Of a stretch of 64,000 bases of DNA, positions 2,337 through 22,725 are shown piece after piece. The translations under genes and the position numbers were made by a program. Origin of the DNA: Candidatus Limnocylindria bacterium (GTDB taxonomy: Bacteria; Chloroflexota; Limnocylindria; P2-11E). Within the stretch, counting starts at the first letter, position 1. The number at the start of each line of letters is the position of its first letter. The notes under the pieces are model-generated. The model did not search any database, was not told the origin of the DNA, and worked only from the letters and a program-made list of their open reading frames with translations. Where the stretch lies: NCBI GenBank assembly GCA_036523395.1, contig DATDEH010000083.1:53686-117685 (forward strand), written 5' to 3'.

Positions 2337-2382
2337 CTGAGGCGACGGCGGGAATCGAACCCGCGATGAAGGTTTTGCAGAC
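2337..2382 (-). repeat. 46-bp copy of tRNA-Cys 3' half; internal att repeat between the two islands
   Basis: Identical to 666..711; 45/46 to 9516..9561. Confidence 0.85.
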
Positions 2383-2866
2383 ATGTCGCGCATTTGTCGC
2401 TCAAGCTCGCGAGAACATTCGGAAATCGAGAAAGTCGCGCTCCCGGCTGACCAATTCGGGTGCGCAGACCTCTGCGGGTAACTGCACGCGACAACGTCGA
2501 TGAACGCGTTGTTGTCGCCTCGGCGGCGATGCACCAACTCGTCGCGCAGCCAGCGATTTCACGTTGCTGTGATGAGCGCCAGGTGATCCACCGTGCTGCT
2601 GATGCTCCGCCCTCGCTTGCCATGCGAAACGGCCGACGACGAATACCAGGATGACTGCCGTCCTTGCGTAGAAATTCGGCCCACGCCGAGTGCCCGTGAC
2701 TGTCGCGGGAAGTCCATCCGTCATCACTTCTCTGCACACGAGTACCGCAGGTTCAAGCACGCGGGAAATGCCTTTCCGCTGTGGTTCCCGGGGTATTCGT
2801 GCTCTAGGTCCCGGCTGCCTGAAGACGACGTCAGGTGGCTGACGTCGATGTTTGGCGCCTCAGTCC

Positions 2867-3460
2867 TCACCGATGCCGAGCCATGTTCCACACAGCAATC
2901 CGCTGGTCAGAGCAGTTGGCGGGGTCGTTTGTGGCGCCCTTGCCGACGGCGAAATGGGTCCCGACTTGTGCCACGCTAACCCTCAGGTCGTACTCAAAGT
3001 CACGGCTCGAGTTGGCCTGTCCCCGCGCGAGATCGAAGCGCTCGCCCGCAGCGCGGCGGTCGAGGAAGTACCGCACTATCGCATCGCGATCTCGCGGTGC
3101 CGCAAAGTCTCCGCCGACCTGACGCCGATCGTCACTAAAGATCACGGCCGTCGCAAGAGCTGCCGTAATCGCTTGCCCGTCACCGGCGTCAATGGCGCGA
3201 ACGAAAGAGCCTAATAGTTCAGACACGTCTGCCTTCGTGCAGGGAAGGTTGCTCGCGGGTCGGGAACCGCTATCTGGGATCGAACAAGATAACGTGAGCA
3301 CGCACGCAAGCAAAAGACCAAAGACGAAGCGCGCCGCAGGCGTGCGACCGGGGCTCTGCAGACGAGCTACAGGCCCACGGCGAGGAGCGCAGCGGACCCC
3401 AGAAGGACAAGATGGCCTGCGCCGATGATCCGCGCCATCGGCTGCCGATGGATCAGCCAT
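2867..3460 (-). CDS. putative secreted lipoprotein (last gene of the island operon)
   Basis: Hydrophobic segment ARFVFGLLLACVLTLSCS with a Cys-containing lipobox-like end; no ATG/GTG immediately upstream of the signal peptide, so the start codon is uncertain and overlap with the upstream gene may be shorter. Confidence 0.4.
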   Translation of the reverse strand: MADPSAADGADHRRRPSCPSGVRCAPRRGPVARLQSPGRTPAARFVFGLLLACVLTLSCSIPDSGSRPASNLPCTKADVSELLGSFVRAIDAGDGQAITAALATAVIFSDDRRQVGGDFAAPRDRDAIVRYFLDRRAAGERFDLARGQANSSRDFEYDLRVSVAQVGTHFAVGKGATNDPANCSDQRIAVWNMARHR

Positions 3461-3951
3461 AGCGCCTCCTCGTTAAAGTCGCGTCCTCGTCGGTATTCGA
3501 TAAGGCTTGCCAGAAAGAGCGCCGCGCCGCCAACGGCACGCGTACCGCCGTACGCGCCAAATACCATTGCACCGACAGCCGGGTTCCCGAGTAGGAACGC
3601 GGCGGCTGGCACCAGATACCAGGACCAGAATCCAATCCGGGTCGTCGCTCCGATGCCAAGTACTGCTCCCGTGGGCAGTCCCCATCGAATGGGGCTGGTG
3701 TTCACCCACCGCAGTGGTGTCTCCCTATCACACTGCATCAACTGCGGACCCCGGCCAAACCACGCGGCGCCCCCGAGAGCAACGGCCAGCATGGCACCGA
3801 GGCTCGCAAGGATCGTCCTCCCGCTGGCATCAACGTAACTACCAAGCAGACCCAGTAGAGCGCCAGCGGCAGCCGCGGCGGCTGCGGCACTGAGCGTGAA
3901 GCTCAGGACCGCAAGGCCACGCCTCGCATGACTCCTTCTGTTCCGAAGCAC
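3367..3951 (-). CDS. polytopic integral membrane protein, unknown family
   Basis: 194 aa with 5-6 hydrophobic helices (LAVLSFTLSAAAAAAAAGALLGLL, AVLGIGATT, VPAAAFLLGNPAVGAMVFGAYGG, LLGSAALLAVGL); lies directly downstream of the Cys-rich peptide gene. Confidence 0.45.
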   Translation of the reverse strand: MLRNRRSHARRGLAVLSFTLSAAAAAAAAGALLGLLGSYVDASGRTILASLGAMLAVALGGAAWFGRGPQLMQCDRETPLRWVNTSPIRWGLPTGAVLGIGATTRIGFWSWYLVPAAAFLLGNPAVGAMVFGAYGGTRAVGGAALFLASLIEYRRGRDFNEEALWLIHRQPMARIIGAGHLVLLGSAALLAVGL

Positions 3952-4130
3952 GTCGGAACACGCGATCCCGAAGACCGCGTTGACACCTCAGGGCAGGGTC
4001 TGTTGCAGGACCGCGACGAGGGATGCGGAGCCGACCCAGAGCCAGACTACGTCGGCGTCACCGGAACGAAGTGCGAGTCCTATTGCGAGGCCCACGGCAG
4101 TGAGCGCAACTAGGAGAAGCACTCTCAGAG

Positions 4131-4520
4131 TCAGCATGAACCGCCGCACGGTCCGATGTAGGCCCGGCAGATGCAGGTGTATCCAGCGCAGTTGTCGACC
4201 CAGTCACAGCACAGGTACTCCGCGCGGCAGTAGCACGTGTACCAGCACTGTGTACCGTTCGGACAACCGAGATAGCCATCGGTACACGGCGTTCCACAGG
4301 TGTCAATGCACTGCGTGCCGCTACAGTTGTGACACAGTTTGTAGCCGAAGCACGGGTACGAACTCACGTGATTCGCGCTGGCAAGGTCTGGCGCAGTCAC
4401 CCTAAGCGCGGCGCTGAACAGCAGTCCGCCCAGCAGAGCGAGGGCCCGACTGCGGCCGAACCGCACCCTCTCAAGAGCTGGGTCTGTGGGATCGCCGATA
4501 TCAACGAGTTGCATGGACAT
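4131..4520 (-). CDS. secreted cysteine-rich small protein (17 Cys in about 78-aa mature region)
   Basis: N-region with Arg cluster, hydrophobic core ALALLGGLLFSAAL, then VTA/ASA cleavage-like sites. Mature part is VSSYPCFGYKLCHNCSGTQCIDTCGTPCTDGYLGCPNGTQCWYTCYCRAEYLCCDWVDNCAGYTCICRAYIGPCGGSC. Start overlaps the upstream thioredoxin gene by 20 nt. Confidence 0.55.
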   Translation of the reverse strand: MSMQLVDIGDPTDPALERVRFGRSRALALLGGLLFSAALRVTAPDLASANHVSSYPCFGYKLCHNCSGTQCIDTCGTPCTDGYLGCPNGTQCWYTCYCRAEYLCCDWVDNCAGYTCICRAYIGPCGGSC

Positions 4521-5097
4521 CTTCCAATGCCTCCCTTAGTGGACTCGGTAGGCGACGTCTTCCGTCGCTCCGCGCTCGCACGATCACCTCGAAATCTCGG
4601 ACCGTGTGCATGTACGACTTCGCGGTTACATGGCCGCTTTCAATCTCAAGTAGGAAGGGTGTCCGCTGGAGTTCCAGCGCCTTGGCGAGCGACGAGGCTA
4701 CGGGGTCGACCACGGTCTGGATCCAGGCCGGAAACTGCTCGACGAGCGTGGCTGCCAGCTCCGATCTTCCCGGAACTAAGGCCACCGTGCGTGGAACTTC
4801 GCGCGCCTTGGCCAGTTGCGGCACCAGTTCGCGACATGGACTGCAGGTCGCCGATGTCAGCAGCAAGTAAACAGGACCCTTGGCGGCCTCGGGGATTGTT
4901 GCGATGACTTCCGGTGACACTGCCCGTCCGATCTCCAGCCCATCTATGTTCCCCGCTGGCCGGCCCGCCCCAGACGCCTCCAAGCGCACCGCGAACACCG
5001 CCATCTGGCGGACCAGCGTCAGCGTCGTGATCGTCAGGACTCCTGTCCAAATCGCGAGCCCAATTGACACAAGTTCAGACACGTGACGGCCCTCCAT
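4501..5097 (-). CDS. membrane-anchored thioredoxin-fold thiol-disulfide oxidoreductase (TlpA/MauD-like)
   Basis: N-terminal TM helix LVSIGLAIWTGVLTITTLTLV, then a thioredoxin-like region with a CSPC (CxxC) active site in YLLLTSATCSPCRELVPQL. Confidence 0.6.
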   Translation of the reverse strand: MEGRHVSELVSIGLAIWTGVLTITTLTLVRQMAVFAVRLEASGAGRPAGNIDGLEIGRAVSPEVIATIPEAAKGPVYLLLTSATCSPCRELVPQLAKAREVPRTVALVPGRSELAATLVEQFPAWIQTVVDPVASSLAKALELQRTPFLLEIESGHVTAKSYMHTVRDFEVIVRARSDGRRRLPSPLREALEDVHATR

Positions 5098-5653
5098 GTT
5101 CGTGCCGACTGAGTCGCAGAAGCCCGGGCATCGATGAACCTAACCACGCTGACGCCGTCAATGCGAGTGCGATCAGTAGCTGCTCAACGATGTGCAATGT
5201 CGTCGGAGGGCCCAGCGCAAGCGCGAGAGTCGCAAGCAAGGCCAGTCCACCCGTGCGCGCGAGAGTCCGTCGCGAGACGCCCTCATCAGCTTCTCCAAAG
5301 CAGAAGCAGGGCTCATGGTTGCCGCGCGCGAGTTGTCGACCGATCAGACCCGTGTACAGCCAGAGCAGCAAGGCGGCAACCGCGATTGCAAAGGCACGGC
5401 TGCTTTCGACAATCAAGCCCAAGGCTAGGCTCGCCTCGAAGATTCCTACCGCCAAGGCCATCCGCGGATGAACACCGGAGATGATGCCGAACGAACTGAT
5501 TCCCCGAGCCGCCAGACTGGGCTCGCGGATCTTCGCTACTGCTGCGACTCCCAATACAACGGCGATGACGCACGCGGCGACGCCTCCGGTCTCACTGCCC
5601 CACTCACTACCGAGTGCGGACAGAGCGGAGCCGATCAGGGCGAATCCGCTCAC
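5075..5653 (-). CDS. MauE/DoxX-like redox-associated membrane protein
   Basis: Four hydrophobic helices and a paired-Cys motif EPCFCFGE near the third helix; the organisation next to a membrane thioredoxin mirrors the mauE-mauD pairing of methylamine dehydrogenase clusters (family call from memory of sequence features). Confidence 0.55.
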   Translation of the reverse strand: MSGFALIGSALSALGSEWGSETGGVAACVIAVVLGVAAVAKIREPSLAARGISSFGIISGVHPRMALAVGIFEASLALGLIVESSRAFAIAVAALLLWLYTGLIGRQLARGNHEPCFCFGEADEGVSRRTLARTGGLALLATLALALGPPTTLHIVEQLLIALALTASAWLGSSMPGLLRLSRHEHGGPSRV

Positions 5654-5655
5654 GG

Positions 5656-6192
5656 CTAGGCGGTCCGAAATATCTCGCGAGCCACGGGCCCGTCCCGTGG
5701 GTCAACGCGTACGACCATCGTCACGGTGTCACCAGGCGAGATCGCCTGAACTGATATTGGATCGGTGCGTGTGCCGTTGTAGAAGCGACAGTCAGCAGGG
5801 ACTCTCGCCGAGCCAGCGCTCGTCGCGATGATGTCGGCAGTGGCAGACACAACCGGACCTGACACCAGGCGATAGAGCGCCTCCACTCGCGACGCACGCA
5901 ACGGCGGCCTGTCTCCTTCAAGTTCGGCGACCACCTCATCGCCTCGCATGAATGCTTTGTAGGACGCCGCGCCGTCACGGTTGAACGCTGCGTCGTGTAT
6001 TTGCACGAGCTGTCTACCTTGGGTTGTCTGCAGAAGCATGACGCTTTGATTGAGCTGCTCGATTACGCCGTTTACGCTTGGTTTCACAGGTCCTGCTTCA
6101 CCGGCAACACTTAGGGTGCCGAGACTTGTCATGCCTACGACGACACCGGCGGCAGTCAGAAGACGGCGGCGGGTAAGCGGAACGTCATTCAT
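5656..6192 (-). CDS. Tat-signal secreted protein, unknown function (first gene of the operon)
   Basis: Twin-arginine motif TRRRLLTAAGVVVG followed by an AxA-like site; a 3-nt gap separates it from the MauE-like gene. Confidence 0.5.
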   Translation of the reverse strand: MNDVPLTRRRLLTAAGVVVGMTSLGTLSVAGEAGPVKPSVNGVIEQLNQSVMLLQTTQGRQLVQIHDAAFNRDGAASYKAFMRGDEVVAELEGDRPPLRASRVEALYRLVSGPVVSATADIIATSAGSARVPADCRFYNGTRTDPISVQAISPGDTVTMVVRVDPRDGPVAREIFRTA

Positions 6193-6404
6193 AGGGCATC
6201 CCTCGCTTTCGACTATTCCCCGACGAGAGGGGCATCCGATCGTGGCCGCTGCGCCGAAGAAGTCGCTACCAAACGTAGTGACGCGGGGGGCCTCGTCAAA
6301 GTCGGCAGTTCTACCGACGCCATGCGAATGGATCCGAGCCCCCGCAGGACTGACCGCCGAGACAGTTGGAGGTCGGCTTGCCGATCCGCGAGCCCGGAAG
6401 AGTG

Positions 6405-6746
6405 TTAGTCCCGGCCAGGCCGATGTCCTTTGGACGGTGGGCGGTCGCCGCCGTCGGACTTCTCAAGACGATCCAGCCATTCAGGGTCCTGAAGAACCTG
6501 CGCGACGAGCGCAGCGCGACAGTGCACGTGATAGCGGTCATAAAGGCGCTCAAGGTGAGTGCGCACGGTGCGATACGAGGTGCCGACCCGATACGCAATC
6601 TCCTTGTCGGTCGAACCGTCGGCGAGGAGTTGGACGATTGCGGTCTGCGCGTTCGTCATTTGCCGGATGCGGCGTTTTGGGCGGTCGTCTCGATCGTCCT
6701 CAGCTCTCGCCGCCGCGACGGAGGTCGAAGGCTTCGGTTTGACCAC
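6405..6746 (-). CDS. LuxR/GerE-family HTH transcriptional regulator (small)
   Basis: C-terminal TNAQTAIVQLLADGSTDKEIAYRVGTSYRTVRTHLERLY matches the LuxR-type HTH signature. Confidence 0.6.
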   Translation of the reverse strand: MVKPKPSTSVAAARAEDDRDDRPKRRIRQMTNAQTAIVQLLADGSTDKEIAYRVGTSYRTVRTHLERLYDRYHVHCRAALVAQVLQDPEWLDRLEKSDGGDRPPSKGHRPGRD

Positions 6747-6884
6747 GAAATGTGACTTCCTCCGAGTCTCGTATGACGCTCGGGCAACTCAGCGACGGGT
6801 GGCGCCGGGCTCACCCTTTCGTCCGCGCTCAGGTAGCGGATAGTCCTACTGACTGGCAGGTCAGGCAACTGTACCTTTGGTCAA

Positions 6885-7094
6885 ATGCCTGGGCAGTCGT
6901 CGCGCAGACAGCCGACGCCTCAGCAGCAGGAAGTGCTCGATCTGCTGTTGCGGGGCGCGACCAACAAGCAAATCGCAGTCCGACTTGGGATCACCGAACG
7001 TGGCGTCAAGTACCACGTGTCACGGCTACTCGCGCGCTACTCCGTGGACAGTCGCGCGGAACTCATCTCGTTGATCCTTCGCAGGCGGCGCTGA
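6885..7094 (+). CDS. stand-alone LuxR/GerE-family HTH protein (69 aa)
   Basis: TPQQQEVLDLLLRGATNKQIAVRLGITERGVKYHVSRLLARY is the LuxR-type HTH signature; divergent to 6405..6746. Confidence 0.6.
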   Translation: MPGQSSRRQPTPQQQEVLDLLLRGATNKQIAVRLGITERGVKYHVSRLLARYSVDSRAELISLILRRRR

Positions 7095-7328
7095 TCGGCA
7101 TAGCGAGTCGACCAATGAGGCACTCCGCCAAAGAGCCCAGGCACGTAAATGCGACCCGGGACAGATTCCAGTGGCTTGCCGCCAGCCCGCGAGTCCTGGT
7201 CACATTTTCGATGTGAAGTGCGCCACGGTGACCCATGGACTACTCCGGTACAACGCGGGGGTGCCTCGGACATTTCTCGTTAGTCGCTTTGGCGTTCTGG
7301 CCCTGTTGGTGACGCTGTTGGGCAGGCC

Positions 7329-8300
7329 TTGGTCTCGGCCAACAATCCGACCGGCGCTTTCGTCCGATTCGTCCGAGACCGGACGCAAACCGTATGGCCT
7401 GAGTTTCTTCTCATCCGAAAGTTCCTTCCTCGCGTTCGAGAAGAATCCATAATCACCGCGAGCCGCCGCGAGACCGATGTCGTCCGCCTCGTTGCGCTCC
7501 ACCGCTTCCTCACCCGCCCTCAGCTCGAGGATTTCCTGTTCGCGGAATCGACGCTGACGCCACGCTCGCGGCAGGTCGTGACCTGGCGGATCCTCGGACG
7601 CCTCCAGCGCCACGGCCTCGTTGCTGCTACGCCGCGCCAGAGCGGCGGCGCGGTTGCCGGCTCCACGTTGCCTGGATATTTCCTGACCACGACCGGGCTG
7701 CGCGTCGCCGCCACCTTCTACCCCGATCTCCCGGCACGTCGGCCGGCGCGACGCGCGCCGTTCCTCCTCGCGCATAGCGTCATGGCCGCCGACGTCGAGC
7801 TCGCCTTCCGCCGCGCGGCGCGCGGGAATTCCGGACACGAGCTGGAGCTCTGGGAGTGCGACTGGCAGACCCGGCTGAAGCTCGGGAGCAAGAAGCTTCT
7901 GCCAGACGCGCGACTCGTGTATCGCTTGGGCCGGGTGCTGCTCGATGCCTTCGTCGAGGTGGATCTCGGGACCGAGGGGACGCGCTTCTTCGCCGGCAAG
8001 ATCGACCGGTACATCTCGGCCCGCTACGACGGCGGCTGGCGCACGCATCTGTCGCGCTGGCCGATGACGCTCACGATCACACCGACTGCGGCGCGGGCGG
8101 CGTCGCTCTGGGAGGCGACCACCGCGAGGCTGAACGCGCACCCCTGGTCTTCGGGCGGGATGGCCTTCAAGTTCTGCTCGATCGATGCGCTTCTGGGCGA
8201 ACCCGGAGTGCTCGGCGCGCGCTGGCGCGTCGCCGGCACAAAGGAGTCGACTCTGTTCGCGACTCCAGAGCAACTTGCCGCGGCAAGCGGTGCTGAGTGA
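7329..8300 (+). CDS. replication-relaxation family protein (plasmid/ICE-type)
   Basis: N-terminal winged-helix signature ETDVVRLVALHRFLTRPQLEDFLF...SRQVVTWRILGRLQRHGLV is typical of the replication-relaxation family; the antisense 404-aa ORF 7200..8414 is rejected as an R/A-rich artefact. Confidence 0.5.
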   Translation: MVSANNPTGAFVRFVRDRTQTVWPEFLLIRKFLPRVREESIITASRRETDVVRLVALHRFLTRPQLEDFLFAESTLTPRSRQVVTWRILGRLQRHGLVAATPRQSGGAVAGSTLPGYFLTTTGLRVAATFYPDLPARRPARRAPFLLAHSVMAADVELAFRRAARGNSGHELELWECDWQTRLKLGSKKLLPDARLVYRLGRVLLDAFVEVDLGTEGTRFFAGKIDRYISARYDGGWRTHLSRWPMTLTITPTAARAASLWEATTARLNAHPWSSGGMAFKFCSIDALLGEPGVLGARWRVAGTKESTLFATPEQLAAASGAE

Positions 8301-8389
8301 AACGTGGGTCAATCCGCCATCAGTCATCGGTGGGCGGTCGCCGGTGATACGCTCGGCCGCGGTCAGCCGGGAGCGCGTGAAGGTGGCAC

Positions 8390-9420
8390 ATGGCCGCACA
8401 ACGCGCGTGGACATTCACAACTGAAGACGAGTCCCAGACGCTGAAGCCCTCGTACCCGCTCACGGAAGCGATCGCGGACTTCCGGCGCGATGCGCCGATC
8501 CGCGAGACCACCCTCCGCGGGTACACCGTCTCGCTCCGCCTATTCACCGAGTGGCTTCAAGCGAAGGCCGACGCACGACCTGCACTCGCCGACCTCACGT
8601 ACGAAAACGCGTCGGCGTTCGGGGCGAACTTCCGTCCCACGGACAAGCACGCACCGCGCTACACCGAGCGCAACAAGCTAGTCGCGCTCAAAGCGCTCGC
8701 GAAGTGGCTCGCCGAGCGGCACCTGTACTTCGAGGCACGCGGTGACCAGCGCCTCTCGATCCTCCGCGACCTGAGGCTCCCACCGGTCCGCAGCTCGGAC
8801 GCAAACCCTTCAGCGACCGTGAGGTGAAGGCGATCCTCGGCGCGGTTTCCAAGATCGCCACCTACCCGATGCGCGAGCGCGCGATCCTCACCCTCCAGAT
8901 GTCGGCGCCGATGCGGCCCGACGAGGTGCGGCGCATCGCTCTCCGCGACTTCGAGCCGCGCGAGCGCGAAAGACGCGGACACATCCGGATCCGCGGCGCG
9001 AAGACCGAAGCCGGGTCCGACCGAGTCATCCCGCTGGACGACGAGGCCGAGTCGGCGCTCCACAGCTACCTCCGGTTCGAGCGGCCGGCGTGGGCCGGCG
9101 ACGGACCGAGAGATCACGCCGGCGAAGAGCCGCTCTTCCTGAACCGCGACGGCAGAGGCTTCACCGAGTTCTCCTGGAACAGCCGAAATCAGATCCTGCG
9201 ACGCCGGCTCCAGCAGTCCGGCGTTCGCGACTTCGTCCAGTACCGCTCCCGCGGATACGCCGCGAAGCGCCTGCAGAAGCGACGCGTGCCGCTGCAGGTG
9301 ATCATGCAGATCGGCGGCTGGAAGCGGGAAGCGATGCCGACGCGGTACATCGGCAAGTACGACGAGGACGAGCTCAAGGACTTCCCCACCGCGAACCTGC
9401 GCGACGTCCTCGCGAGGTAA
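8390..9420 (+). pseudogene. tyrosine-type site-specific integrase, apparently split by a frameshift (N-terminal ORF 8390..8827, catalytic ORF 8824..9420)
   Basis: N-terminal ORF has the SAM-like core-binding features (YTVSLRLFTEWL). The second frame reads GRKPFSDREVKAILGAV (classic integrase linker) followed by a catalytic domain with Arg (MRPDEV), Lys (GAKTEAG), GGWK (Trp at the His-II position, as in Cre) and the TRYIGKY nucleophile Tyr. The two frames overlap around 8746..8827. Confidence 0.7.
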
Positions 9421-9516
9421 CAAGAGACCACTGCGGGTCAGACCTCTGCGGGAAAACGGAAGACCTCTGCGGGGGCAAGAACGCGATCAGCACGATCGGC
9501 CCGGTTCTATTGACTC

Positions 9517-9589
<73 letters not shown>

Positions 9590-9720
9590 TAGGAGCGGCG
9601 GCGGCGAGCGACTCGCCGGGCGCCGCGACGACGGCGACGTGAGCGAAGCGATACGTCGCCTAAGAGGCACGTACCCACAGCTAACGGCGCCGGTCGGGTC
9701 AGTCAAGTCTACGGGGAAAA

Positions 9721-10494
9721 ATGCGGGAGGGCAGGCGACGTGCATACTGCCGCCGCATGCTTCCCATCGGCGACCAGGACGAACCGGGCGGCCTCCCGCT
9801 CGTCAACATCGCGATCATCGCGATCAACGTCCTCGTCTTCGTCCTGCTCCAGCTCCCGAGCGATGCGTTCACGATGGGCTTCAGCACGATCCCGAAGGAG
9901 ATCACGACTGGCGTCGACCTGGTCGGCCCGGTCGCGATCACTCTCCCCGACGGCAGCGTCGAGACGCTCATCGAGGCGCCGGGTCCGAGTCCCATCTGGC
10001 TGACGCTGTTCACGTCGATGTTCATGCACGGCGGCTGGCTGCACATCGGTGGGAACATGCTCTTTCTGTTCATCTTTGGCGACAACGTCGAGCGGCGGCT
10101 TGGCTCGCTCCTGTATCTCGCGTTCTATCTGGTCTGCGGCGTCGTCGCATCCGCGGCGCAGATCGCCACCGACGTCAACTCCGTGATCCCGAGCCTCGGA
10201 GCGTCGGGTGCGATCAGCGGTGTGCTCGCGGCCTACCTCGTGTACTTCCCGCAGAACCGTGTGCGCGTTCTGGTGGGTTTCCGCTACGTCACCGAGGTGC
10301 CCGCGCTGGTGATGATCGGGCTATGGGCGCTGATCCAGTTCATATCGGGATTCGGCTCCATCGCCACGACCGCTTCGAGCGGCGGAGGCGTCGCGTACTT
10401 CGCGCACATCGGAGGGTTCATCGCCGGCGTCGTACTGGCATTCCTGTTGCGCGCTGTGGGCCGAGGACCCACGAGACCCTTCGCGACCGTGTAG
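9721..10494 (+). CDS. rhomboid-family intramembrane serine protease
   Basis: HGGWLHIGGNMLFLFIFG, the catalytic GASGAISGV and AHIGGFIAG motifs; 6 TM segments; an alternative start at Met 9754 is possible. Confidence 0.85.
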   Translation: MREGRRRAYCRRMLPIGDQDEPGGLPLVNIAIIAINVLVFVLLQLPSDAFTMGFSTIPKEITTGVDLVGPVAITLPDGSVETLIEAPGPSPIWLTLFTSMFMHGGWLHIGGNMLFLFIFGDNVERRLGSLLYLAFYLVCGVVASAAQIATDVNSVIPSLGASGAISGVLAAYLVYFPQNRVRVLVGFRYVTEVPALVMIGLWALIQFISGFGSIATTASSGGGVAYFAHIGGFIAGVVLAFLLRAVGRGPTRPFATV

Positions 10495-10502
10495 CTGGCC
10501 GC

Positions 10503-12095
10503 TTAGAGGATGCGGGCGATCCGCTCCACGTCCTCGGCCACATCGGTACGGCCGTCGAGACGGTACGCGTGGGACAAGAGGTGGCACTTCTCTTTTGCCG
10601 TATCGCGCCGCCCGATCGCGCAATCGATCTCGATGAGCAGTCGCTGCGGCTCGCGGTCGGTGAGACCGTGGGCGATGTAGTCGAGCAGGAGGTCCGAGGC
10701 TGACTGCAGCTTCCCGTGGGTGAGGAGGCGGCGCGCCGCGTCGAGGGTCGCGTCGGTCGCGCGCTTGTCGCGCCTGCCGATGAGGAGCGTCGCGCGCGCC
10801 GCGACCGTGTTCGCGGCCTCGAGATCGTTGCCCTGCGGGACCAGCGCCTTGAGCTCGCGTTCGAGATCGAGTGGCGGGCGCGCTGCCCGTGGCGGTCGTG
10901 CGGGCGCGATGACCGGCGCCGGAACGGGCGCGGACTTGTGGCCGTTGGGCGAGAGGCCGGCACGGGCGAGAAGATCCACAGGCCGCCCGAGATCCACCCC
11001 TTCGGCGTGTGTGACGGTGCTCGCGCCGTTGAGCACGACCGTCGTCTGCGAGGCGGAGGGCCGGGTCGTCTGCGAAGCCGAGGGCTGGGCCGCGGCCGGA
11101 GCTTTCACTGGTTCGGCCTTCGCGGGCGTGGGCTTCGCGGGCTCGGGCCGCAGGACTGGTGGCTCGGTCCGGAACGTGGGCGGCTCGGGCTCGGATCGGA
11201 AAGCGTGCGGCTCTGGTCGTAGCGCTGCCGGCGTCGTCCGGAATGTCGGCGGCTCCGGCTGCGCGCGGAAGACGGGCCGATCGATCTTCGGCGCCGGCGC
11301 CACCGGCTTTGGAGCGAGCTCGGAGCGGGCGATGATGGGCGGCACTTCACCGATCCGTGGCGCAGGGCCGGCGGAGCCACCGGTCGCGGCCGCGACGCGA
11401 TCGACGATCGCCCTGAGGCCGGGTAGGTCGCCGAGCGTCTCGCGCCCGTATGTGAGCTCCAGCCACGCGCGACGCGTGTCGTGCTGAGCGAGGGCCATGT
11501 CGACGAAGCGCGCGTACTCGCGGATCGCGCTCGGGAGGTCGCCCTGGTTCGCGAGCGCGGCCGCGAGACGACGGTGCGCGGCGAGATCGGACGGAGCGAT
11601 CGCCACGGCCTCGAGCAGCAAAGCGACGGCGGTCGCGCGATCACCGCCCTGTGCGAATCTCCCCGCCGCTTCGCGCAGCGTCGTGAGCGCCGCGCCGACA
11701 TCCTGCTGCGCTGCCTGCGCGCGCGCGAGACCGCAGTACGCCTCGATGTCGCCGCGCTTCTCGACGAGCTCGCGGAACGCCACCTCAGACTGCCGAGCTT
11801 TCCCGCTTTCGAGAAGCTTCGCCGCGTTGTCGGTCGCGCGACGGTGGCCGCCACTCTGCGGCTTCTGCGAGGCGCCGCACGCAGCGAGCGCTGAGGCAAG
11901 CTCGGCCGCGCGCTCCTCGCCCATCGCGCGCGCTGCCTTCGTACGTACTCGCGCGACCAGACCGTCGAGCTGAGCAGGGCTGATGGTGTTGGCGTTGACG
12001 CCGAGCGCGTGGAATTCCGTGGAGAGGAAGGTCTGCGTAGCGGGCCCGAGGTAGCCCTTGGCTACCCCCAGCAGCTGCTGCGCAAACGCGTTCAA
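10503..12095 (-). CDS. TPR-like repeat protein with a Pro-rich tandem-repeat linker
   Basis: Ala/Leu-rich helical repeat blocks; central PEPPTFRT repeats and SASQTT repeats; start overlaps the stop of the upstream dCache-HAMP gene by 4 nt. Confidence 0.5.
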   Translation of the reverse strand: MNAFAQQLLGVAKGYLGPATQTFLSTEFHALGVNANTISPAQLDGLVARVRTKAARAMGEERAAELASALAACGASQKPQSGGHRRATDNAAKLLESGKARQSEVAFRELVEKRGDIEAYCGLARAQAAQQDVGAALTTLREAAGRFAQGGDRATAVALLLEAVAIAPSDLAAHRRLAAALANQGDLPSAIREYARFVDMALAQHDTRRAWLELTYGRETLGDLPGLRAIVDRVAAATGGSAGPAPRIGEVPPIIARSELAPKPVAPAPKIDRPVFRAQPEPPTFRTTPAALRPEPHAFRSEPEPPTFRTEPPVLRPEPAKPTPAKAEPVKAPAAAQPSASQTTRPSASQTTVVLNGASTVTHAEGVDLGRPVDLLARAGLSPNGHKSAPVPAPVIAPARPPRAARPPLDLERELKALVPQGNDLEAANTVAARATLLIGRRDKRATDATLDAARRLLTHGKLQSASDLLLDYIAHGLTDREPQRLLIEIDCAIGRRDTAKEKCHLLSHAYRLDGRTDVAEDVERIARIL

Positions 12096-13333
12096 TCTTC
12101 GCCTGCGGTCGCGTCGTCCGACAATGCGTAGAAGCGGAGGGCGTTCAGCATCCGATCAAAGGCGGACGCGACCTCGCGCGTGATGTCGTCACCCGAGCGT
12201 GTGTCGAAGCGCGCGTACCGAAGGTCAACATCGCCGGTGGAGACCATCGTCGCCTCACCAACGAGGCGTCGCAGCGGACGCACCAGCGAACGAGTCAGCA
12301 GCACGCCGATGACGAGCGAGAGGAGCAGTCCCACGATGACCATGCTCGTCGCGTTCACCGTGGCGTCGTCCGCGGCCTTGGTGTACGTCGCGATCGGGAC
12401 CGCGAGCACGTAGGCCCACGGCTTGGCGGTGAGACGGGTCACGACGCCGCGCTGCTCGAGGTCCGCGTTGCCGAAGGAGAACTGCGAAGAGGTCGTGATC
12501 CCCCTGGGCAGCTTGTCGAGCGCGGTCTTCAGCGTGGGCAGCGGGTCGATGACGAGCTGCTCCGGGGTCTTCGTACCAAAGCGCTTGTCCGCCGCGAGCT
12601 TCTTCGCGGTCTCCGCCTCGATCGGTGCGATCGGCTTGTAGATGAGCGACTCCGCCTGATCGCGGTGACCCTTCGTCTCGGACACCGCGAGCCGGATCCC
12701 GAAGTCGTCCACGAGGAAACCGTGAGCGCCGGCGCCAACGGCGCCGAGGTCGCCCTCGACGACGTCCCAGATCGCGGCGAGGTTCACGCGGGTACGCACG
12801 ACAGCGAGGACCTTCTCGCCGTCCATCACAGGCGCGGAGAAGAAAAGAGCTGGCTTGTTCGTGATGACGGAGTAGCTCGGGTCGCTGATGTACGGCGTGC
12901 CCTTGAACGCGGTCGTGAAGTACTCGCGGAACTTCACGCTCGTGCCCTCGTCGGTGAGGATCGACGCCGCGACGATCGTTCCGTCGGGGTCGACGACCGC
13001 GACCGATTCGTATTCAGGCGAGCGGGCGGCCGCGGCGGAGAGAGCCACGCGCGCGGCCGCCTTCGCGGCGGGGTCTTTCATGTTTTGGCCGAAGCGGATG
13101 ATGTCCGGCAGCTTGCCGACGAGGACGATGTCGCCAAGCCGGCTCTGCAGATACGCATCGATGGCGCCGGCGGTCGAGGTCGAGCGCTGCTGGATGTTCG
13201 TGACGCCGAGGCTCGTGAGGTCCTGACGAGTCGTTTGGATGGAGACCATGCTCACGAGGGTCACGGGGACGATGCCAACGCAAAGGAGTGCTCCGAGGAC
13301 CTTCTGCCAGAAACGGATCCGAAGGAAACCCAT
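12092..13333 (-). CDS. membrane sensor with periplasmic double-Cache-like domain and HAMP domain, no output domain
   Basis: N-terminal TM (LGALLCVGIVPVTLVSMV), about 280-aa extracytoplasmic region, second TM (MVIVGLLLSLVIGVLL), then a HAMP-like segment TRSLVRPLRRLVGEATMVSTGDVDLR...ITREVASAFDRMLNAL; the protein ends about 25 aa later. Confidence 0.55.
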   Translation of the reverse strand: MGFLRIRFWQKVLGALLCVGIVPVTLVSMVSIQTTRQDLTSLGVTNIQQRSTSTAGAIDAYLQSRLGDIVLVGKLPDIIRFGQNMKDPAAKAAARVALSAAAARSPEYESVAVVDPDGTIVAASILTDEGTSVKFREYFTTAFKGTPYISDPSYSVITNKPALFFSAPVMDGEKVLAVVRTRVNLAAIWDVVEGDLGAVGAGAHGFLVDDFGIRLAVSETKGHRDQAESLIYKPIAPIEAETAKKLAADKRFGTKTPEQLVIDPLPTLKTALDKLPRGITTSSQFSFGNADLEQRGVVTRLTAKPWAYVLAVPIATYTKAADDATVNATSMVIVGLLLSLVIGVLLTRSLVRPLRRLVGEATMVSTGDVDLRYARFDTRSGDDITREVASAFDRMLNALRFYALSDDATAGED

Positions 13334-13488
13334 AGCTACCCCTGACCTCTCTCCATGTGTCGCCCCACAGGCTCGTCGCCTACGCGCACTGTGGGCGCGT
13401 GAGCACACGGCGGGTAGTCAGGCCCGCATAAACCGTCCGTACCGGCTTCGGACTAGTACCCCAATGGGGGGACTATGACGGTCCGGCG

Positions 13489-14016
13489 TCAGCGCGGGAT
13501 GCGCTGCGAGCGCCGTGCGTCGCGCATCAGGCCACGCAGCAAGCGCTTGGACTCCTCAAGTTCCGTGCGGTCCGCCTCGGTCAGGCCGCCGCGCTGAGGA
13601 TCGAGGCGCCACCAGCACTCGAAGCCCCAGAGGCGCTCTTCGCCGAGCCGCAGGCGCGGGATCCCGGTACCGGCCCGGCGGAGCTCGCCGGTCTCGAAGT
13701 CGAAGAAGCCTTCAAAGCTGGCGGCCTGGCCGGTGCGGTCGGGTTCGCCCTCGCGCAGGTCGAGAAGGATCACGCAGGGCGTTCCCGGGCGGATCTCATC
13801 CGCCGCACGCACCGGTCGGGCACGGGTGCCGCGCCGCGCTGGTCGCCGGTCCGGGCGCGCATCGCGAGGTGGACCACGACGTGGATCGCGGAGGGCGGGG
13901 GCGCGCTCGGGTTGTGCAGGCGCGCGCTCCGGTTGCGCTGGTGGTTGCTGTGGACGTCCTCCGCGCCGTCGTCCACCGCGCGACCGACGACGCGGTGATC
14001 GCCCTGCGTCCGGCAT
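13489..14016 (-). CDS. conserved hypothetical protein, divergent from aceE (start uncertain)
   Basis: Structured C-terminal region ([17 protein letters not shown]...[34 protein letters not shown]); the track ORF to 14595 is an overextension into the aceE antisense region. Confidence 0.35.
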
Positions 14017-14085
14017 GCCGTCATATTGGCATGCCGCGGCTTGGTCGACCGTCGTGACCGGTCGCGCCGGTACACTCGATCTCGG

Positions 14086-16770
14086 ATGCACGAAGTTTTC
14101 GACGAGTTCAAGCGACAGCTCCCCGATATCGATCCGGCCGAGACCGATGAGTGGATCGAGTCCCTCGACGCCCTCGTCAAGCAAGCGGGCCCCGAGCGGG
14201 CGCGCTTCGTCCTCTACAAGCTCCTCAAGCGCGCGCGCATGCTGCAGGTAGGACTGCCGCCGCTCACGCAGACGCGTTACATCAACACGATCTCCCCTGA
14301 GCAGGAGCCCGACTTCCCGGGCGATGAGGAGATGGAACACCGCATCCGGCAGTACATCCGCTGGAACGCCGTCGCGATGGTCGTGCGCGCGAACCATCGC
14401 TATGACGGCATCGGCGGGCACCTCGCGACCTATGCGTCGTCCGCGACGCTCTACGAGGTCGGCTTCAACCACTTCTTCCGCGGCAAGGACGACGGCAATG
14501 ACGGCGATCAGGTCTTCTACCAGGGCCACGCATCGCCTGGCATCTACGCGCGCGCGTTCCTCGAGGGCCGCCTGAAGGAGAGCCAGCTCGATCACTTCCG
14601 GCGCGAGAGCAAGCCCGGTGAGGGACTGTCCTCATATCCCCACCCGCGCCTCATGCCCGACTACTGGGAATTCCCGACCGTCTCGATGGGGCTCGGTCCG
14701 ATCACTGCGATCTATCAGGCGCGCTTCAACCGCTACCTGCAGAACCGCGGGATCAAGGACACGAACGCGCAGCGGGTGTGGGGATTCCTCGGCGATGGCG
14801 AATGCGACGAGCCCGAGTCGCTCGGCGCGCTCCATCTCGCGGCCCGCGAGGGGCTCGACAACCTGACCTTCGTCGTGAACTGCAACCTACAGCGTCTCGA
14901 TGGTCCGGTGCGTGGCAACGGCAAGATCATCCAGGAGCTGGAGGCGGTGTTCCGCGGCTCGGGCTGGAACGTGATCAAGGTGATCTGGGGCCGCGAGTGG
15001 GACGACCTTCTTGCGCGCGACGTCGACGGTGTCCTCGTGAACAAGATGAACGAGACGACCGACGGCGAGTCGCAGCGCCTCACGATCGCTGACGGCGCGT
15101 ACATCCGGGAGCACTTCTTCGGACCGGACCCGCGCCTCCGCAAGCTCGTCGAGCACCTATCCGATGCGGACCTGATGAAGCTGCGACGTGGCGGTCATGA
15201 CTATCGCAAGGTCTATGCGGCCTACCACGAGGCCGTCCGACACACCGCGGCGCCGACCGCGATCCTCGCGCAGACGGTCAAGGGCTGGGCGCTCGGACCC
15301 AACGTCGAGGGACGCAACATCACACACCAGGCGAAGAAGCTCACGTTCGAAGAGCTGAAGATCTTCCGCGATCGCCTCGAGCTACCGATCACCGATAAGC
15401 AGCTCGAGGAGGATCCGCCGTACTACCACCCGGGGATGGACAGCTCCGAGGTCCGGTACATGCTCGAGCGTCGCCGGGCGCTCGGTGGCGTCGTGCCCAA
15501 GCGGGTCGTTCGAGGAAAGCCGCTGCCTGTCCCAAGCGATGCCGCGTTCGCCGAGTTCCCGAAGGGATCGGGGAAAGCAGCCGCGTCGACGACGATGGCG
15601 TTCACGCGGCTCCTGCGGAATCTGCTGCGCGATGAGTCGATCGGCTCGCGCGTCGTCCCGATCATCCCGGACGAAGCGCGCACGTTCGGCATGGACCCGC
15701 TTTTCAAAGAGGTCGGCATCTACTCTTCGCTCGGCCAGACCTACGAGCCGGTCGACGCTGAGACGCTGCTTCCCTATCGCGAGGCGACGAATGGACAGGT
15801 GCTCGAGGAGGGCATCACCGAGGCCGGCTCGATGGCGAGCTTCACCGCAGCGGGCACGAGCTACGCGACGCACTCCGAAGCGATGCTGCCCTTCTACATC
15901 TTCTACTCGATGTTCGGGTTCCAGCGCACGATGGACCAGATCTGGGCGTTTGGTGACGCGCGCGGGCGCGGGTTCCTCCTCGGGGCGACCGCTGGCCGCA
16001 CGACGCTCAACGGCGAGGGCCTGCAGCACGAGGACGGGCACAGCCATCTGCTCGCGACGGCCGTGCCCAACATCCGCGCATACGATCCGGCGTTCGCGTA
16101 CGAGACCGCGGTCATCGTGCGCGACGGCATCCGCCGCATGTTCGTCGACAACATGGACGTCTTCTACTACCTCACGCTCTACAACGAGAACTACCCGATG
16201 CCGCCGATGCCCGCGGGCGTCGAGGACGGCATCCTGCGCGGCATCTACCTCTTCCGGAAAGGCGAGGGCGGCGGCCGAAGCCATGTCACGCTCCTCGGCT
16301 CCGGCCCGATCCTGATGCAGGTGCTGCGGACCCAGGAGATGCTGCAGGAGAAGTACGACGTCGCCGCGGACGTGTACAGCGTCACGAGTTACCAGCAGCT
16401 GCGCAACGAGGCGCTCGAGGTCGAGCGCTGGAACCGGCTGCACCCGACGGAGACCGCGAAGGTCCCCTACGTGGTGCAGGTGCTGGGCGGCGCGACGCCG
16501 ATCATCGCCGCGAGCGACTTCATGAAGGCGGTCCCGGATCAGATCTCCCGCTGGCTCTCGCAGCCCTTCGTTCCGTTGGGGACCGACGGCTTCGGACGGA
16601 GCGACACGCGCGAGGCGCTACGCCGTCACTTCGAAGTGGACGCGGAGAGCATCGCGGTCGCGTCCCTCAACGCACTCGCGCTCTGCGAGCAGTACTCGCC
16701 GCAGGACGTCGCGAAGGCTATCGCGGATCTCGGCATCGATCCGAACAAACCGGAGCCGCGGACCGCCTAA
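14086..16770 (+). CDS. aceE: pyruvate dehydrogenase E1 component, homodimeric type
   Basis: About 895 aa; the N-terminal [18 protein letters not shown], the ThDP-binding [13 protein letters not shown] and overall architecture are characteristic of AceE. Confidence 0.9.
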
Positions 16771-16771
16771 C

Positions 16772-17407
16772 TCAGCGCGGCGTGCGCTGGAACTCGACCA
16801 AGCGGCCGTCTTCGCACCGGAAGGTCACGACCGAGTCGGCGTACTCGCTATGACCGGTGAAAACTCTGCCGCTCGCGTCGCCGCCGCCGATGCTGCCGCC
16901 GCTCAGCATCTGTTGGGCCGCGCCGGGCCACCTACTGCTCGAAGTGCCCGCGCCATTCTCGAAGCACTCGGCGGTCGCGGGTACGGCCTGGGCGACATAC
17001 AGCATCACGACGCCAAACCCGAGGAGAGCGCCACCGAGGGCGGCGGGTCGCGCGTACGTCAGCTCACCCCGTCGCAGCGCGCGGTACAGCAAGAGGAGGA
17101 ACACCACCCCAGCCGGCAAGACAGCGAGGCCGATCGAGAACGCCGCGAGGAAGCCGAAGAACAGACAGCCGCTCGCGAGCAACGCGAGCAACGTGACATA
17201 TCGCGAGCGCCGCCAGGGCACTACTTGCGCACCCACCGCCAGACCGAACATCGCAGCCGCGAGAAGCACGTAGTCGAAGCGCTCCGGCTCGAAGATCTTC
17301 GAGCCATCCGCACGCAGCGCTAGGTAAACGGGGAACAGAAGGACGGCACCGACACCCGCCGCTACCGCGACGGCCAAGATGCGCAGCGCTTGCGACGAGT
17401 TACGCAC
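16772..17407 (-). CDS. integral membrane protein, unknown function
   Basis: Several hydrophobic helices; 211 aa. Confidence 0.45.
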   Translation of the reverse strand: MRNSSQALRILAVAVAAGVGAVLLFPVYLALRADGSKIFEPERFDYVLLAAAMFGLAVGAQVVPWRRSRYVTLLALLASGCLFFGFLAAFSIGLAVLPAGVVFLLLLYRALRRGELTYARPAALGGALLGFGVVMLYVAQAVPATAECFENGAGTSSSRWPGAAQQMLSGGSIGGGDASGRVFTGHSEYADSVVTFRCEDGRLVEFQRTPR

Positions 17408-19079: not shown

Positions 19080-19139
19080 GTAAGAACCGTATCAGCGGAC
19101 AGTCAGATACGCTTTCCCCCGCCACACCGGGGAGGGCTG

Positions 19140-21710: not shown

Positions 21711-21711
21711 C

Positions 21712-22725
21712 TCAGCCGCCGATGAAGCTCATCTCGATCTTCTTGAGGCCGACGGTCTCCTCCGAGCGGAGCTCGGAATACCGGTCGTCGCGCGCGGTCC
21801 AGATCGCGGAGATCGAGTCGGCCATCTGAACATCCGTCGCGTCGCTGCGCACCAGGCCGCGAAGATCGTGGCCCTGTGTCGCGAAGAGGCATGTGTAAAG
21901 CGAGCCGTCGGCTGACAGACGGGCGCGTGTGCAGTCGGCGCAGAACGCCTGCGTCACCGAAGCGATGACGCCGATCTCGCCGCTGCCATCACGGTAGCGC
22001 CAGCGCTCGGCGACCTCGCCCTGGTAGTTCTTCTCGACCGGCTCGAGTGGCAGCTCGCGATCGATCGTCGCGACGATCTCGCGCGCCGACACGACATCGT
22101 TCAGCCGCCACCCGTTCGACGAGCCGACATCCATGTATTCGATGAAGCGGAGGATCCGACCGGTGCCGCGGAAGTGACGCGCCATCGGCAGGATGCTGTC
22201 GTCGTTGAGGCCGCGCTTCACGACCATGTTCACCTTCAGCGGTGCGAGACCGGCCGCCTCAGCCGCGTCCATGCCCTCGAGCACTTTCGCGACGGGGAAG
22301 TCCACGTCGTTCATGCGCTTGAACACCTCGTCGTCGAGCGAATCGAGGCTCACCGTCACGCGCTTCAGCCCCGCGTCGCGCAGCGCGCGCGCCTTTGAGG
22401 CGAGGAGCGAGCCGTTCGTCGTGAGGGTCAGGTCGAGGTCACTGACTTTCGCGAGCATCTCCACCAGTCGCTCGATGTTGCGCCGGACGAGCGGCTCGCC
22501 ACCCGTGAGCCGCACCTTGCGCACGCCCAAGCCGACGAAGACGCGCACGAGTCGCTCGATCTCTTCGAACGACAGGATCTCGGCACGCGGGAGGAACTGG
22601 AAGTCCTTGCCGAAGACCTCCTTCGGCATGCAGTACACGCAGCGGAAGTTGCACCGGTCGGTAACGCTGACGCGCAGGTCGTGCAGCGGACGGGCGAATA
22701 CGTCGGTTGGCAGCATCACCCACAA
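21712..22725 (-). CDS. moaA: GTP 3',8-cyclase MoaA (molybdenum cofactor biosynthesis)
   Basis: Radical-SAM CNFRCVYC cluster motif, a C-terminal second 4Fe-4S Cys triad ([18 protein letters not shown]) and GG tail. Confidence 0.9.

Follow-up and report, generated by a model that had tools for sequence, protein, structure and literature searches.

A Mobile Seven-Gene Cassette Resembling a Reduced mau Module and Predicted to Make a Disulfide-Rich Extracytoplasmic Protein

What do MauE- and MauD-like proteins do beside a small, cysteine-rich secreted protein when no amine dehydrogenase genes accompany them? The question is raised by a gene cassette on a 64,000-nucleotide stretch of DNA (the window) from Candidatus Limnocylindria bacterium, a member of the Chloroflexota (contig DATDEH010000083.1). 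All coordinates given here are positions in the window. The cassette is composed of seven co-directional minus-strand genes with the transcription order A-B-C-D-D2-E-F. From sequence comparison, and with a probability of roughly 0.7, it is read here as a mobile, self-contained, reduced mau-like module that makes one heavily disulfide-bonded extracytoplasmic protein (D) and no amine dehydrogenase.

Gene Content and Layout of the Cassette

The seven genes are listed below with the coordinates of their open reading frames (ORFs) and their lengths in amino acids (aa).

A, 5656-6192, minus strand: 178 aa; secreted protein with a twin-arginine translocation (Tat) signal (TRRRLL) and two DUF5666-type small beta-barrel repeats.
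B, 5075-5653, minus strand: 192 aa; MauE-family membrane protein (thiol oxidase by homology; analogue of DsbB/VKOR).
C, 4501-5097, minus strand: 198 aa; membrane-anchored MauD-like protein of the thioredoxin fold, with C85-S-P-C88.
D, 4131-4520, minus strand: 129 aa; cysteine-rich protein with a cleavable leader.
D2, 3988-4149, minus strand: 53 aa; small membrane protein with two hydrophobic segments, ending in QQTLP.
E, 3367-3951, minus strand: 194 aa; polytopic MauF-like membrane protein with four hydrophobic segments.
F, 2867-3460, minus strand: 197 aa by the longest ORF; lipoprotein with a lipobox-like FGLLLAC, weakly NTF2/SnoaL-like.

A and B are separated by a 2-nucleotide gap, B and C overlap by 23 nucleotides, and C and D overlap by 20 nucleotides. 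A preliminary description of the locus, made from the sequence alone, reported six co-directional minus-strand genes with 3-nucleotide gaps or short overlaps. All six ORFs were recovered in place, and the tight packing applies to the A-B, B-C, and C-D junctions. It does not apply to the D-E interval of 179 nucleotides, which is occupied by the overlooked seventh gene, D2. The overlap between E and F holds only if F takes its longest ORF. The start codon of F is uncertain, and the Logan gene call begins at 3226.

The ORFs, including the cysteine-rich one for which a non-coding frame had been considered, are real genes as judged by their homologues, their conserved neighborhood, their GC content at third codon positions (GC3), and a GGGAGG sequence located 9 nucleotides upstream of the D ATG. 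GC3 is 0.62-0.72 in the cassette and 0.86-0.90 in neighboring housekeeping genes. A promoter scan found no promoter-like sites. A terminator scan found 7 terminator-like sites against 3.5 expected from shuffled sequence, a modest excess.

The MauE-, MauD-, and MauF-Like Proteins

B matches the Pfam MauE family (PF07291) over residues 25-146 with an E-value of 1.6e-19 and a score of 70.9 bits, against a cut-off of 27. It carries the sequence C116-F-C118-F-G between its third and fourth hydrophobic segments (residues 78-96 and 138-156), and its orthologues keep the CXC motif as CFC, CYC, CGC, or CAC. MauE proteins substitute for DsbB in E. coli; their CXC motif lies in the loop between transmembrane segments 3 and 4, is usually followed by F-G, and is required for activity; and MauA is present in just 10.2% of MauE-bearing species (Gonzalez et al., bioRxiv 10.64898/2026.03.05.709764). 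By family match and motif, B is classed as a true MauE and is predicted to carry out quinone-linked thiol oxidation.

C has no Pfam match. A profile of six C orthologues aligned to four MauD sequences from canonical mau clusters with an hhalign probability of 98.2% (E 4.2e-14, 176 columns). The alignment spans the full length of the protein, taking in the LLRQ-bearing N-terminal anchor, the thioredoxin fold, and the CxxC. Searched against the PDB, the C profile ranked thioredoxin-family structures first. These comparisons identify C as a full-length MauD homologue. The preliminary description had called 5075-5653 MauE-like and 4501-5097 a MauD-like thioredoxin. The Pfam score and CXC-F-G motif bear out the first of these, as opposed to an unrelated family, and the hhalign result together with C85-S-P-C88 bears out the second.

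E has no match in Pfam or NCBIfam. Its residues 14-190 align with residues 103-274 of MauF, the C-terminal two-thirds of that protein, with an hhalign probability of 93.2% and an E-value of 3e-7, from shallow alignments of 6 and 3 sequences, respectively. The E family conserves the motifs RETPxxW and TRxGFWxWYxVP and has no conserved cysteine. E is classed as MauF-like on the strength of this alignment, which would place the entire MauF/MauE/MauD set in the cassette, together with the mauE-mauD-mauA gene order. D2 was considered as the missing N-terminal part of MauF, carried by a split gene, because of the resemblance of LQQTLP to LSTWSP. This was rejected, with an hhalign probability of 0.1%.

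The Cysteine-Rich Protein D and Its Family

All 17 cysteines of D fall in the 80-residue stretch past a signal-peptidase site that follows ASA and precedes N, and the mature protein is 21% Cys. The count of 17 made previously is right, and the mature part, put then at about 78 aa, is 80 aa long. A word-indexed search gave only two relatives. An exhaustive profile search at E ≤ 1e-3 gave 199 cluster representatives, of which 107 passed E ≤ 1e-10, with clusters defined at 50% identity; D is not the orphan ORF that the preliminary description had allowed for. Nearly all of the representatives are 110-150 aa in length.

Conservation was measured over 90 aligned members. Invariant positions are C57, C63, W93, C104, D106, and C116, and six more cysteine positions are conserved in at least 90% of the members; the total number of conserved cysteines is 12. 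One Trp and one Asp are the only invariant residues other than Cys in these divergent sequences. The neighboring Trp107 is variable, with Y, N, F, or H standing in for it in some members. Outside the cysteine scaffold D diverges fast, with a mean column identity of 22-32%. The leader has a conserved motif, VPFGR(S/N)R. The predicted mature N-terminus often has His at position 2 (AxA followed by xH), a feature not kept throughout the family.

None of the 90 members matched Pfam, and the family has no Pfam or NCBIfam model. Its orthologues are labeled "hypothetical protein" in public records. By these searches, D founds a previously unannotated protein family. AlphaFold models of D were confident, with predicted local distance difference test (pLDDT) values of 85.8 and 85.5 from two alignments, one full-length and one mature-only. 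In these models, mature D is predicted to be a compact, beta-rich disulfide knot.

A protein with this cysteine content could be an extracytoplasmic metal binder, metallothionein-like or copper-storage-like, in which thiolates hold Cu or Zn. The 21% Cys and the frequent His at mature position 2 would suit such a role, as would the Tat-like leader, which is also found on copper storage proteins of the Csp1 type. The predicted beta-rich knot with its aromatic residues is unlike metallothioneins or the four-helix Csp proteins, the His is not conserved across the family, and the thiol-oxidizing MauE/MauD couple that always stands alongside would remove free thiolates. A private thiol oxidase is hard to reconcile with metal binding through free thiols, and this explanation is considered very improbable.

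Two departures from the usual D architecture were seen. A subfamily represented by P0072, P0075, and P0113 has an additional C-terminal domain of about 100 aa; a single Cys (RCTDYW, WCSDWY) takes the place of the CC doublet, with Trp and Asp retained. P0147 (287 aa) and P0279 (313 aa) join a MauD-like protein and D in one polypeptide, and these are either real fusions or artefacts of frameshift or assembly.

Conservation of the Module Across Related Loci

Sixteen related loci were compared: three from genomes, ten metagenomic loci with the D pattern, and three short contigs reached from D-family proteins. The genome scan used a 14-sequence D alignment, and all 16 loci were scanned with hidden Markov models (HMMs) of the seven families. 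C lies immediately upstream of D in all 14 loci with upstream sequence, and the contigs carry A, B, D2, E, and F as far as their sequence reaches. The triad of MauE, thioredoxin, and cysteine-rich protein, for which a neighborhood comparison had been proposed, thus recurs as part of a seven-gene set.

Two loci, L011 (3888-8241) and L013 (3990-8496), have a permuted order, B-C'-D2-E-A-C''-D-F, with two MauD-like genes and the complete set retained. The shorter L016 shows part of the same variant architecture, D2-E-C-D-F. In translation, the two MauD-like proteins of L011 have the motifs CSSC and CPAC. This hints that the two proteins of the variant loci may have distinct roles, one as an oxidase and the other as an isomerase or reductase.

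A tblastn search (E ≤ 0.01) of the 64-kb window and the 16 related loci found no MauB, MauG, MauC (amicyanin), MauJ, MauL, MauM, or MauN. Pfam scans of the flanks found unrelated genes and no Me-amine-dh_H or CCP_MauG domain. The preliminary description had reported that the window lacks MauB and MauG, which agrees with these searches. It had also allowed that homologous loci might always include MauA or MauB; the related loci never contain either.

These loci bear on the explanation that the cassette is a decayed methylamine dehydrogenase cluster, one that has lost mauB, mauG, and mauC and in which D is a degenerating mauA. The mau-like gene order and the homology to MauF, MauE, and MauD are what such a cluster would show. 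In a decaying cluster, the same seven-gene set without MauB and MauG would not be expected to recur in 16 independent loci from different lineages, nor would 12 cysteines, the Trp, and the Asp be kept across 199 D clusters. Every ORF is intact, and mau clusters have no members of the A, D2, and F families, which occur specifically in this module. The conservation data exclude decay for all practical purposes.

Partner Proteins A, F, and D2

A is found in every related locus that reaches far enough upstream, and it sits where canonical clusters carry mauB. All of its orthologues bear a twin-arginine signal, and A has two DUF5666 repeats. A itself gave weak TAT_signal matches; its orthologue in L005 matched Pfam DUF5666 with an E-value of 2.6e-8 and TAT_signal with an E-value of 0.002. 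The NCBI name for an A orthologue is "DUF5666 domain-containing protein". A search of the literature on DUF5666 found nothing informative on its role.

F homologues with lipoboxes are present in 10 related loci and share two conserved cysteines. They have weak matches to SnoaL_2 (E 1e-3), DUF4440, and SnoaL_3, from which F is described as a probable lipoprotein that is weakly NTF2-like. A and F always co-occur with D.

D2 orthologues were identified in L001, L005, L006, L007, L011, and L013; together with the window this makes seven loci, all ending in QQTLP or QQALP. The D2 HMM matched in 13 of the 16 loci. The family (50-60 aa) is poorly conserved apart from this invariant extreme C-terminus, QQ(T/A)LP-COOH. 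We know of no sorting or processing signal of this form.

Relationship of D to MauA

MauA, the methylamine dehydrogenase light chain, forms tryptophan tryptophylquinone (TTQ) from Trp57 and Trp108 and holds its twelve cysteines in six disulfides, which pair residues 23-88, 29-61, 36-121, 38-86, 46-77, and 78-109. D matches it in the number of conserved cysteines. The two families also have an ordered motif in common, C-x5-C .. CPxG .. W-x2-3-C .. CC .. C-x-C, which 3 of 200,000 shuffled MauA sequences match; the motif was picked post hoc, after both families had been viewed. The leaders of D and MauA align with an hhalign probability of 48% and an E-value of 1.9e-4 when a 26-sequence MauA alignment is used. 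Among PDB structures, the TTQ light chains MauA and AauA appear to be the closest matches to the predicted D fold.

Other comparisons count against descent from MauA. Foldseek of D against the PDB returned nothing significant and did not return MauA. The Pfam MauA model (PF02975) found nothing at E ≤ 1 in 90 D members, and the D profile found no methylamine dehydrogenase chain in the PDB. In hhalign against a single MauA and against the 26-sequence MauA alignment, only the leaders aligned. Mature-only comparisons, local and global, gave a probability below 1%, and these runs chose a different, non-significant register (CCDW..CIC with CDYW..CxC). D also has just one invariant Trp (W93), and the counterpart of MauA residues 90-131, which include Trp108, is absent. 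MauA homology of mature D at the sequence level was rejected, given that every sequence and profile method failed to align the two mature parts. As the preliminary description held, the cysteine-rich product is shorter than MauA and different from it (80 aa against about 130 aa when mature).

A relationship between D and MauA is put at about even odds. Judging by the predicted fold, the D family may be derived from the light chain of a TTQ dehydrogenase.

If D is a shortened relative of MauA, it could belong to a novel extracytoplasmic redox enzyme as its small subunit, with A in place of MauB and F as an accessory. Without MauG, Trp93 and Asp106 would then join a neighboring Cys or Trp107 in a cofactor built from the protein itself, either tryptophylquinone-like or cross-linked in another way. 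Such an enzyme would account for a Trp and an Asp being the only invariant residues besides Cys in 90 sequences, for the TTQ light chains being the best structural matches, for the MauF/MauE/MauD homologues in a mau-like order with A at the mauB position, for the Tat signal on A at all loci, and for the strict co-conservation of A and F with D. It would also need a cofactor-forming enzyme, and no MauG-type di-haem protein, flavoprotein, or radical S-adenosylmethionine (SAM) enzyme is in the cassette or its flanks. D lacks the part of MauA that bears the second TTQ tryptophan, Trp107 varies, A has no conserved Cys or His suggestive of a redox center, and no electron acceptor (amicyanin or cytochrome) is nearby. 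The redox-enzyme explanation is judged unlikely. Its specific form, in which D is a miniaturized TTQ light-chain descendant that makes a novel extracytoplasmic quinoprotein or cross-linked-cofactor protein of soil Actinomycetota and Chloroflexota together with A, its Trp and Asp matured without MauG, is slightly less likely again. If true, a mobile element would have spread a new, MauG-free way of making a cofactor from the protein itself.

The Integrative Island

The cassette lies on a 7.1-kb island with the following features.

tRNA-Cys (GCA), 9517-9589, minus strand: island integration target (ARAGORN).
44-nucleotide tRNA-Cys repeats, 2339-2382 and 9518-9561: boundaries of the island.
LuxR/GerE-family regulator, 6405-6746, minus strand: directly upstream of A and co-directional with it; Pfam GerE E 1.3e-8.
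Second GerE-family regulator, 6885-7094, plus strand: divergent; Pfam GerE E 4.2e-14.
Replication-relaxation family protein, 7329-8300, plus strand: Pfam Replic_Relax E 5.6e-22.
Tyrosine integrase, split, 8390-9420 (8390-8827 and 8824-9420), plus strand: Pfam Phage_integrase on the second ORF.

The tRNA-Cys is the sole tRNA that ARAGORN found in the window. A 44-nucleotide stretch from its 3' part is found in three exact copies, all in direct orientation (9518-9561, 2339-2382, and 668-711), against an expectation of 0. A Logan contig of 7,195 nucleotides (L003, three samples) is 100% identical to window positions 2353-9547 and ends inside both boundary repeats. A GerE gene is also located upstream of the cassette in L013, and in L007 insertion sequence (IS) transposases flank the module on both sides.

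The integrase adjoins the tRNA-Cys. Its N-terminal ORF (145 aa) and catalytic ORF (198 aa) are in different frames and meet at a GTGA sequence (8824-8827), and the same split is present in L003, which was assembled independently. The split is either a frameshift pseudogene, which would lock the island in place, or a programmed coupling. Because of the two frames, present-day mobility of the island is doubtful.

The genome-resolved relatives of the cassette are metagenome-assembled genomes (MAGs) of Actinomycetota, including a Gaiellaceae, whereas the host here belongs to the Chloroflexota; its pyruvate dehydrogenase E1 shares about 85% identity with proteins labeled Candidatus Limnocylindria or Chloroflexota. 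On this basis, the operon is judged to be foreign cargo on an integrative island. GC3 of the integrase and Replic_Relax genes (7329-9420) is 0.81-0.90, which is host-like (0.86-0.90 over 9700-22000), whereas that of the cargo is atypical (0.62-0.72), so the cargo may have joined an island already resident in the lineage.

This setting is the main attraction of a bacteriocin-type explanation, in which D is an antimicrobial knot, B and C are its private folding enzymes, and D2 and E and/or F confer self-immunity. Cargo of a tRNA-integrated island that is IS-flanked in one relative, with a patchy distribution, transfer across phyla, and an atypical composition, would suit a toxin. So would the fast divergence of D outside its cysteine scaffold. 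Small membrane proteins and lipoproteins are the usual immunity candidates, and the cassette has both. The closest precedent appears to be the sublancin 168 locus of prophage SP-beta (sunA-sunT-bdbA-sunS-bdbB), which is likewise a mobile element that pairs a disulfide-containing product with a thioredoxin-like protein (BdbA) and a DsbB-like protein (BdbB), so that folding is independent of the host. It differs in having a DsbB-type oxidase and not a MauE. Its product, a glycopeptide of 37 aa without homology to D, carries a double-glycine leader and has an ABC exporter of its own. The cassette encodes no dedicated ABC exporter or peptidase, and D has no double-glycine leader; its leader is of the signal-peptidase type (AxA). 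E is homologous to the maturation factor MauF and to no immunity family, the secreted Tat protein A would be left without a role, and no D-family locus was found on viral contigs. A bacteriocin-type locus is a possible explanation and the most probable of the alternatives, and still a doubtful one.

A second segment of 1.6 kb (668-2382) lies between the third and second copies of the 44-nucleotide repeat. It has no integrase and carries a minus-strand gene at about 921-2330 with a DUF2652 domain (Pfam E 1.3e-27). Beyond the repeats, positions 640-667 and 2311-2338 resemble each other over about 25 nucleotides. The segment looks like a tandem island remnant or a satellite. That the integration target is a tRNA-Cys and the cargo protein has 17 cysteines is probably coincidence, and the island has no additional tRNA.

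Proposed Function of the Module

In the genetics of Methylobacterium and Paracoccus, MauF, MauE, and MauD are reportedly the three mau proteins that accumulation of the small subunit requires. In the preferred reading of the cassette as a reduced mau-like folding module, D would be synthesized with its cleavable leader, which has a Tat-like R-x-R n-region and an AxA site, and then exported. C, through its CxPC, would oxidize the 12 conserved cysteines of D to about six disulfides, as its homology suggests. B would in turn re-oxidize C through the CXC loop and pass the electrons to membrane quinone, an activity known for other MauE proteins. E and D2 would assist at the membrane. A and F would most likely be extracytoplasmic partners of D, acting as subunits of a complex, as a chaperone, or as an immunity/receptor pair. 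With its own oxidase pair, the product would be independent of the disulfide machinery of the host, which suits a cassette that moves between phyla.

The preliminary description proposed an export and oxidative-folding module, and suggested a bacteriocin-like toxin, a metal-binding peptide, or a signal as possible products. The folding half stands, as a dedicated MauE/MauD-type pair lies beside the hyper-cysteine protein. The export half is unsupported, as the cassette has no exporter and D, A, and F have ordinary Sec-, Tat-, or lipoprotein-type signals.

For the end function of D, the best guess is a hyper-stable secreted or surface effector carried as accessory cargo, which might work as an antimicrobial or inhibitor or by binding a target. 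The favored options are a secreted effector of high stability and a structural or binding protein attached to a partner. A catalytic quinoprotein has a lower likelihood, given the lack of any enzyme to form the cofactor; what keeps that option in consideration is the invariant Trp and Asp, the MauA-like model, and the Tat-exported partner.

Several points weigh against the folding-module reading. C scored 11.9 bits against the NCBIfam MauD equivalog TIGR02661, for which the cut-off is 188.6, and so is not MauD at the orthologue level. The match between E and MauF may be biased, since transmembrane proteins inflate profile scores, and E is without the invariant N-terminal segment of MauF, GGLLSTWSPCGYSS (STWSPCGYSS). 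The likeness of the D and MauA leaders could be generic to Tat-like signals. What D does in the end, and the roles assigned to its companions A, D2, E, and F, are matters of guesswork.

MauE has been recognized as a widespread DsbB-like oxidase only recently (bioRxiv 10.64898/2026.03.05.709764). The cassette isolates a MauF/MauE/MauD set with one small, confidently modeled candidate substrate and no heavy-chain or TTQ genes. It could serve as a minimal system for how proteins of the MauF/MauE/MauD type fold a six-disulfide protein, and whether this is separable from quinone-cofactor formation. The survey also defines an unannotated family of about 200 clusters that is always accompanied by three further partner families. 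An integrative element of 7 kb can move such a package of folding proteins and substrate from one phylum to another. Should D be an antimicrobial or an inhibitor, heterologous production could draw on a very stable scaffold supplied together with its folding proteins. If it carries a cofactor, it would represent a new class of quinoprotein.

Comparison with Known Systems

The generalist MauE proteins (bioRxiv 10.64898/2026.03.05.709764) resemble B in occurring without MauA, in having CXC-F-G, and in presumably working with a thioredoxin-fold partner such as MauD. The MauE of the cassette differs from these housekeeping proteins in being dedicated and mobile and in having one obvious substrate and a partner that resembles MauF.

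Candidate families of peptides made by ribosomes and modified after translation (RiPPs) flagged by decRiPPter in Streptomyces carry mauE, and one also carries mauD (Kloosterman et al. 2020, PMC7794033). They too place MauE/MauD beside a cysteine-rich precursor (at least 8 Cys) in genomes without other mau genes, belong to Actinomycetota, and are known from bioinformatics. Their precursors are shorter (57-66 aa) and have short leaders that are not signal peptides, and no MauF-like, DUF5666, or NTF2-like partners were reported for them (PMC7794033). A relationship of these precursors to D was not demonstrable; a score of 13 bits came with an equal compositional bias.

Already known, then, are that MauE without MauA is common and that cysteine-rich precursors adjacent to MauE/MauD have been flagged by decRiPPter. 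New are the D family, the MauF-like member, the mobile-island context, the possible descent from a TTQ light chain, and the fixed seven-gene composition with its DUF5666, QQTLP, and NTF2-like partners.

In layout, the cassette resembles the mau cluster, mauFBEDACJGLMN, in which mauE-mauD-mauA (order given in PMC4543880) corresponds to B-C-D. B has the MauE domain and CXC motif, C is a MauD homologue over its full length, E resembles the C-terminal part of MauF, and D, like MauA, has 12 conserved cysteines and a long Tat-like leader. The differences are in gene content, sequence, and host. The cassette has no MauB, no MauG, MauL, MauM, or MauN for TTQ biogenesis, no amicyanin, and no MauJ; it adds the DUF5666 Tat protein, the QQTLP mini-protein, and the NTF2-like lipoprotein. 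Mature D (80 aa) is shorter than mature MauA (about 130 aa), is missing the second TTQ tryptophan segment, and is not recognized by the Pfam MauA model or by profile comparison. E is without the conserved N-terminal Cys motif of MauF. The cassette is hosted by Actinomycetota and Chloroflexota, whereas mau clusters are hosted by methylotrophic Proteobacteria.

Four canonical mau clusters (L018 and L020-L022) were included for reference. All have the order mauB-mauE-mauD-mauA, and mauF precedes in three of the four. In L018, the Methylobacterium reference, mauB was called as two ORFs of 164 and 245 aa (7528-8756), which suggests a frameshift or sequencing error in the assembly.

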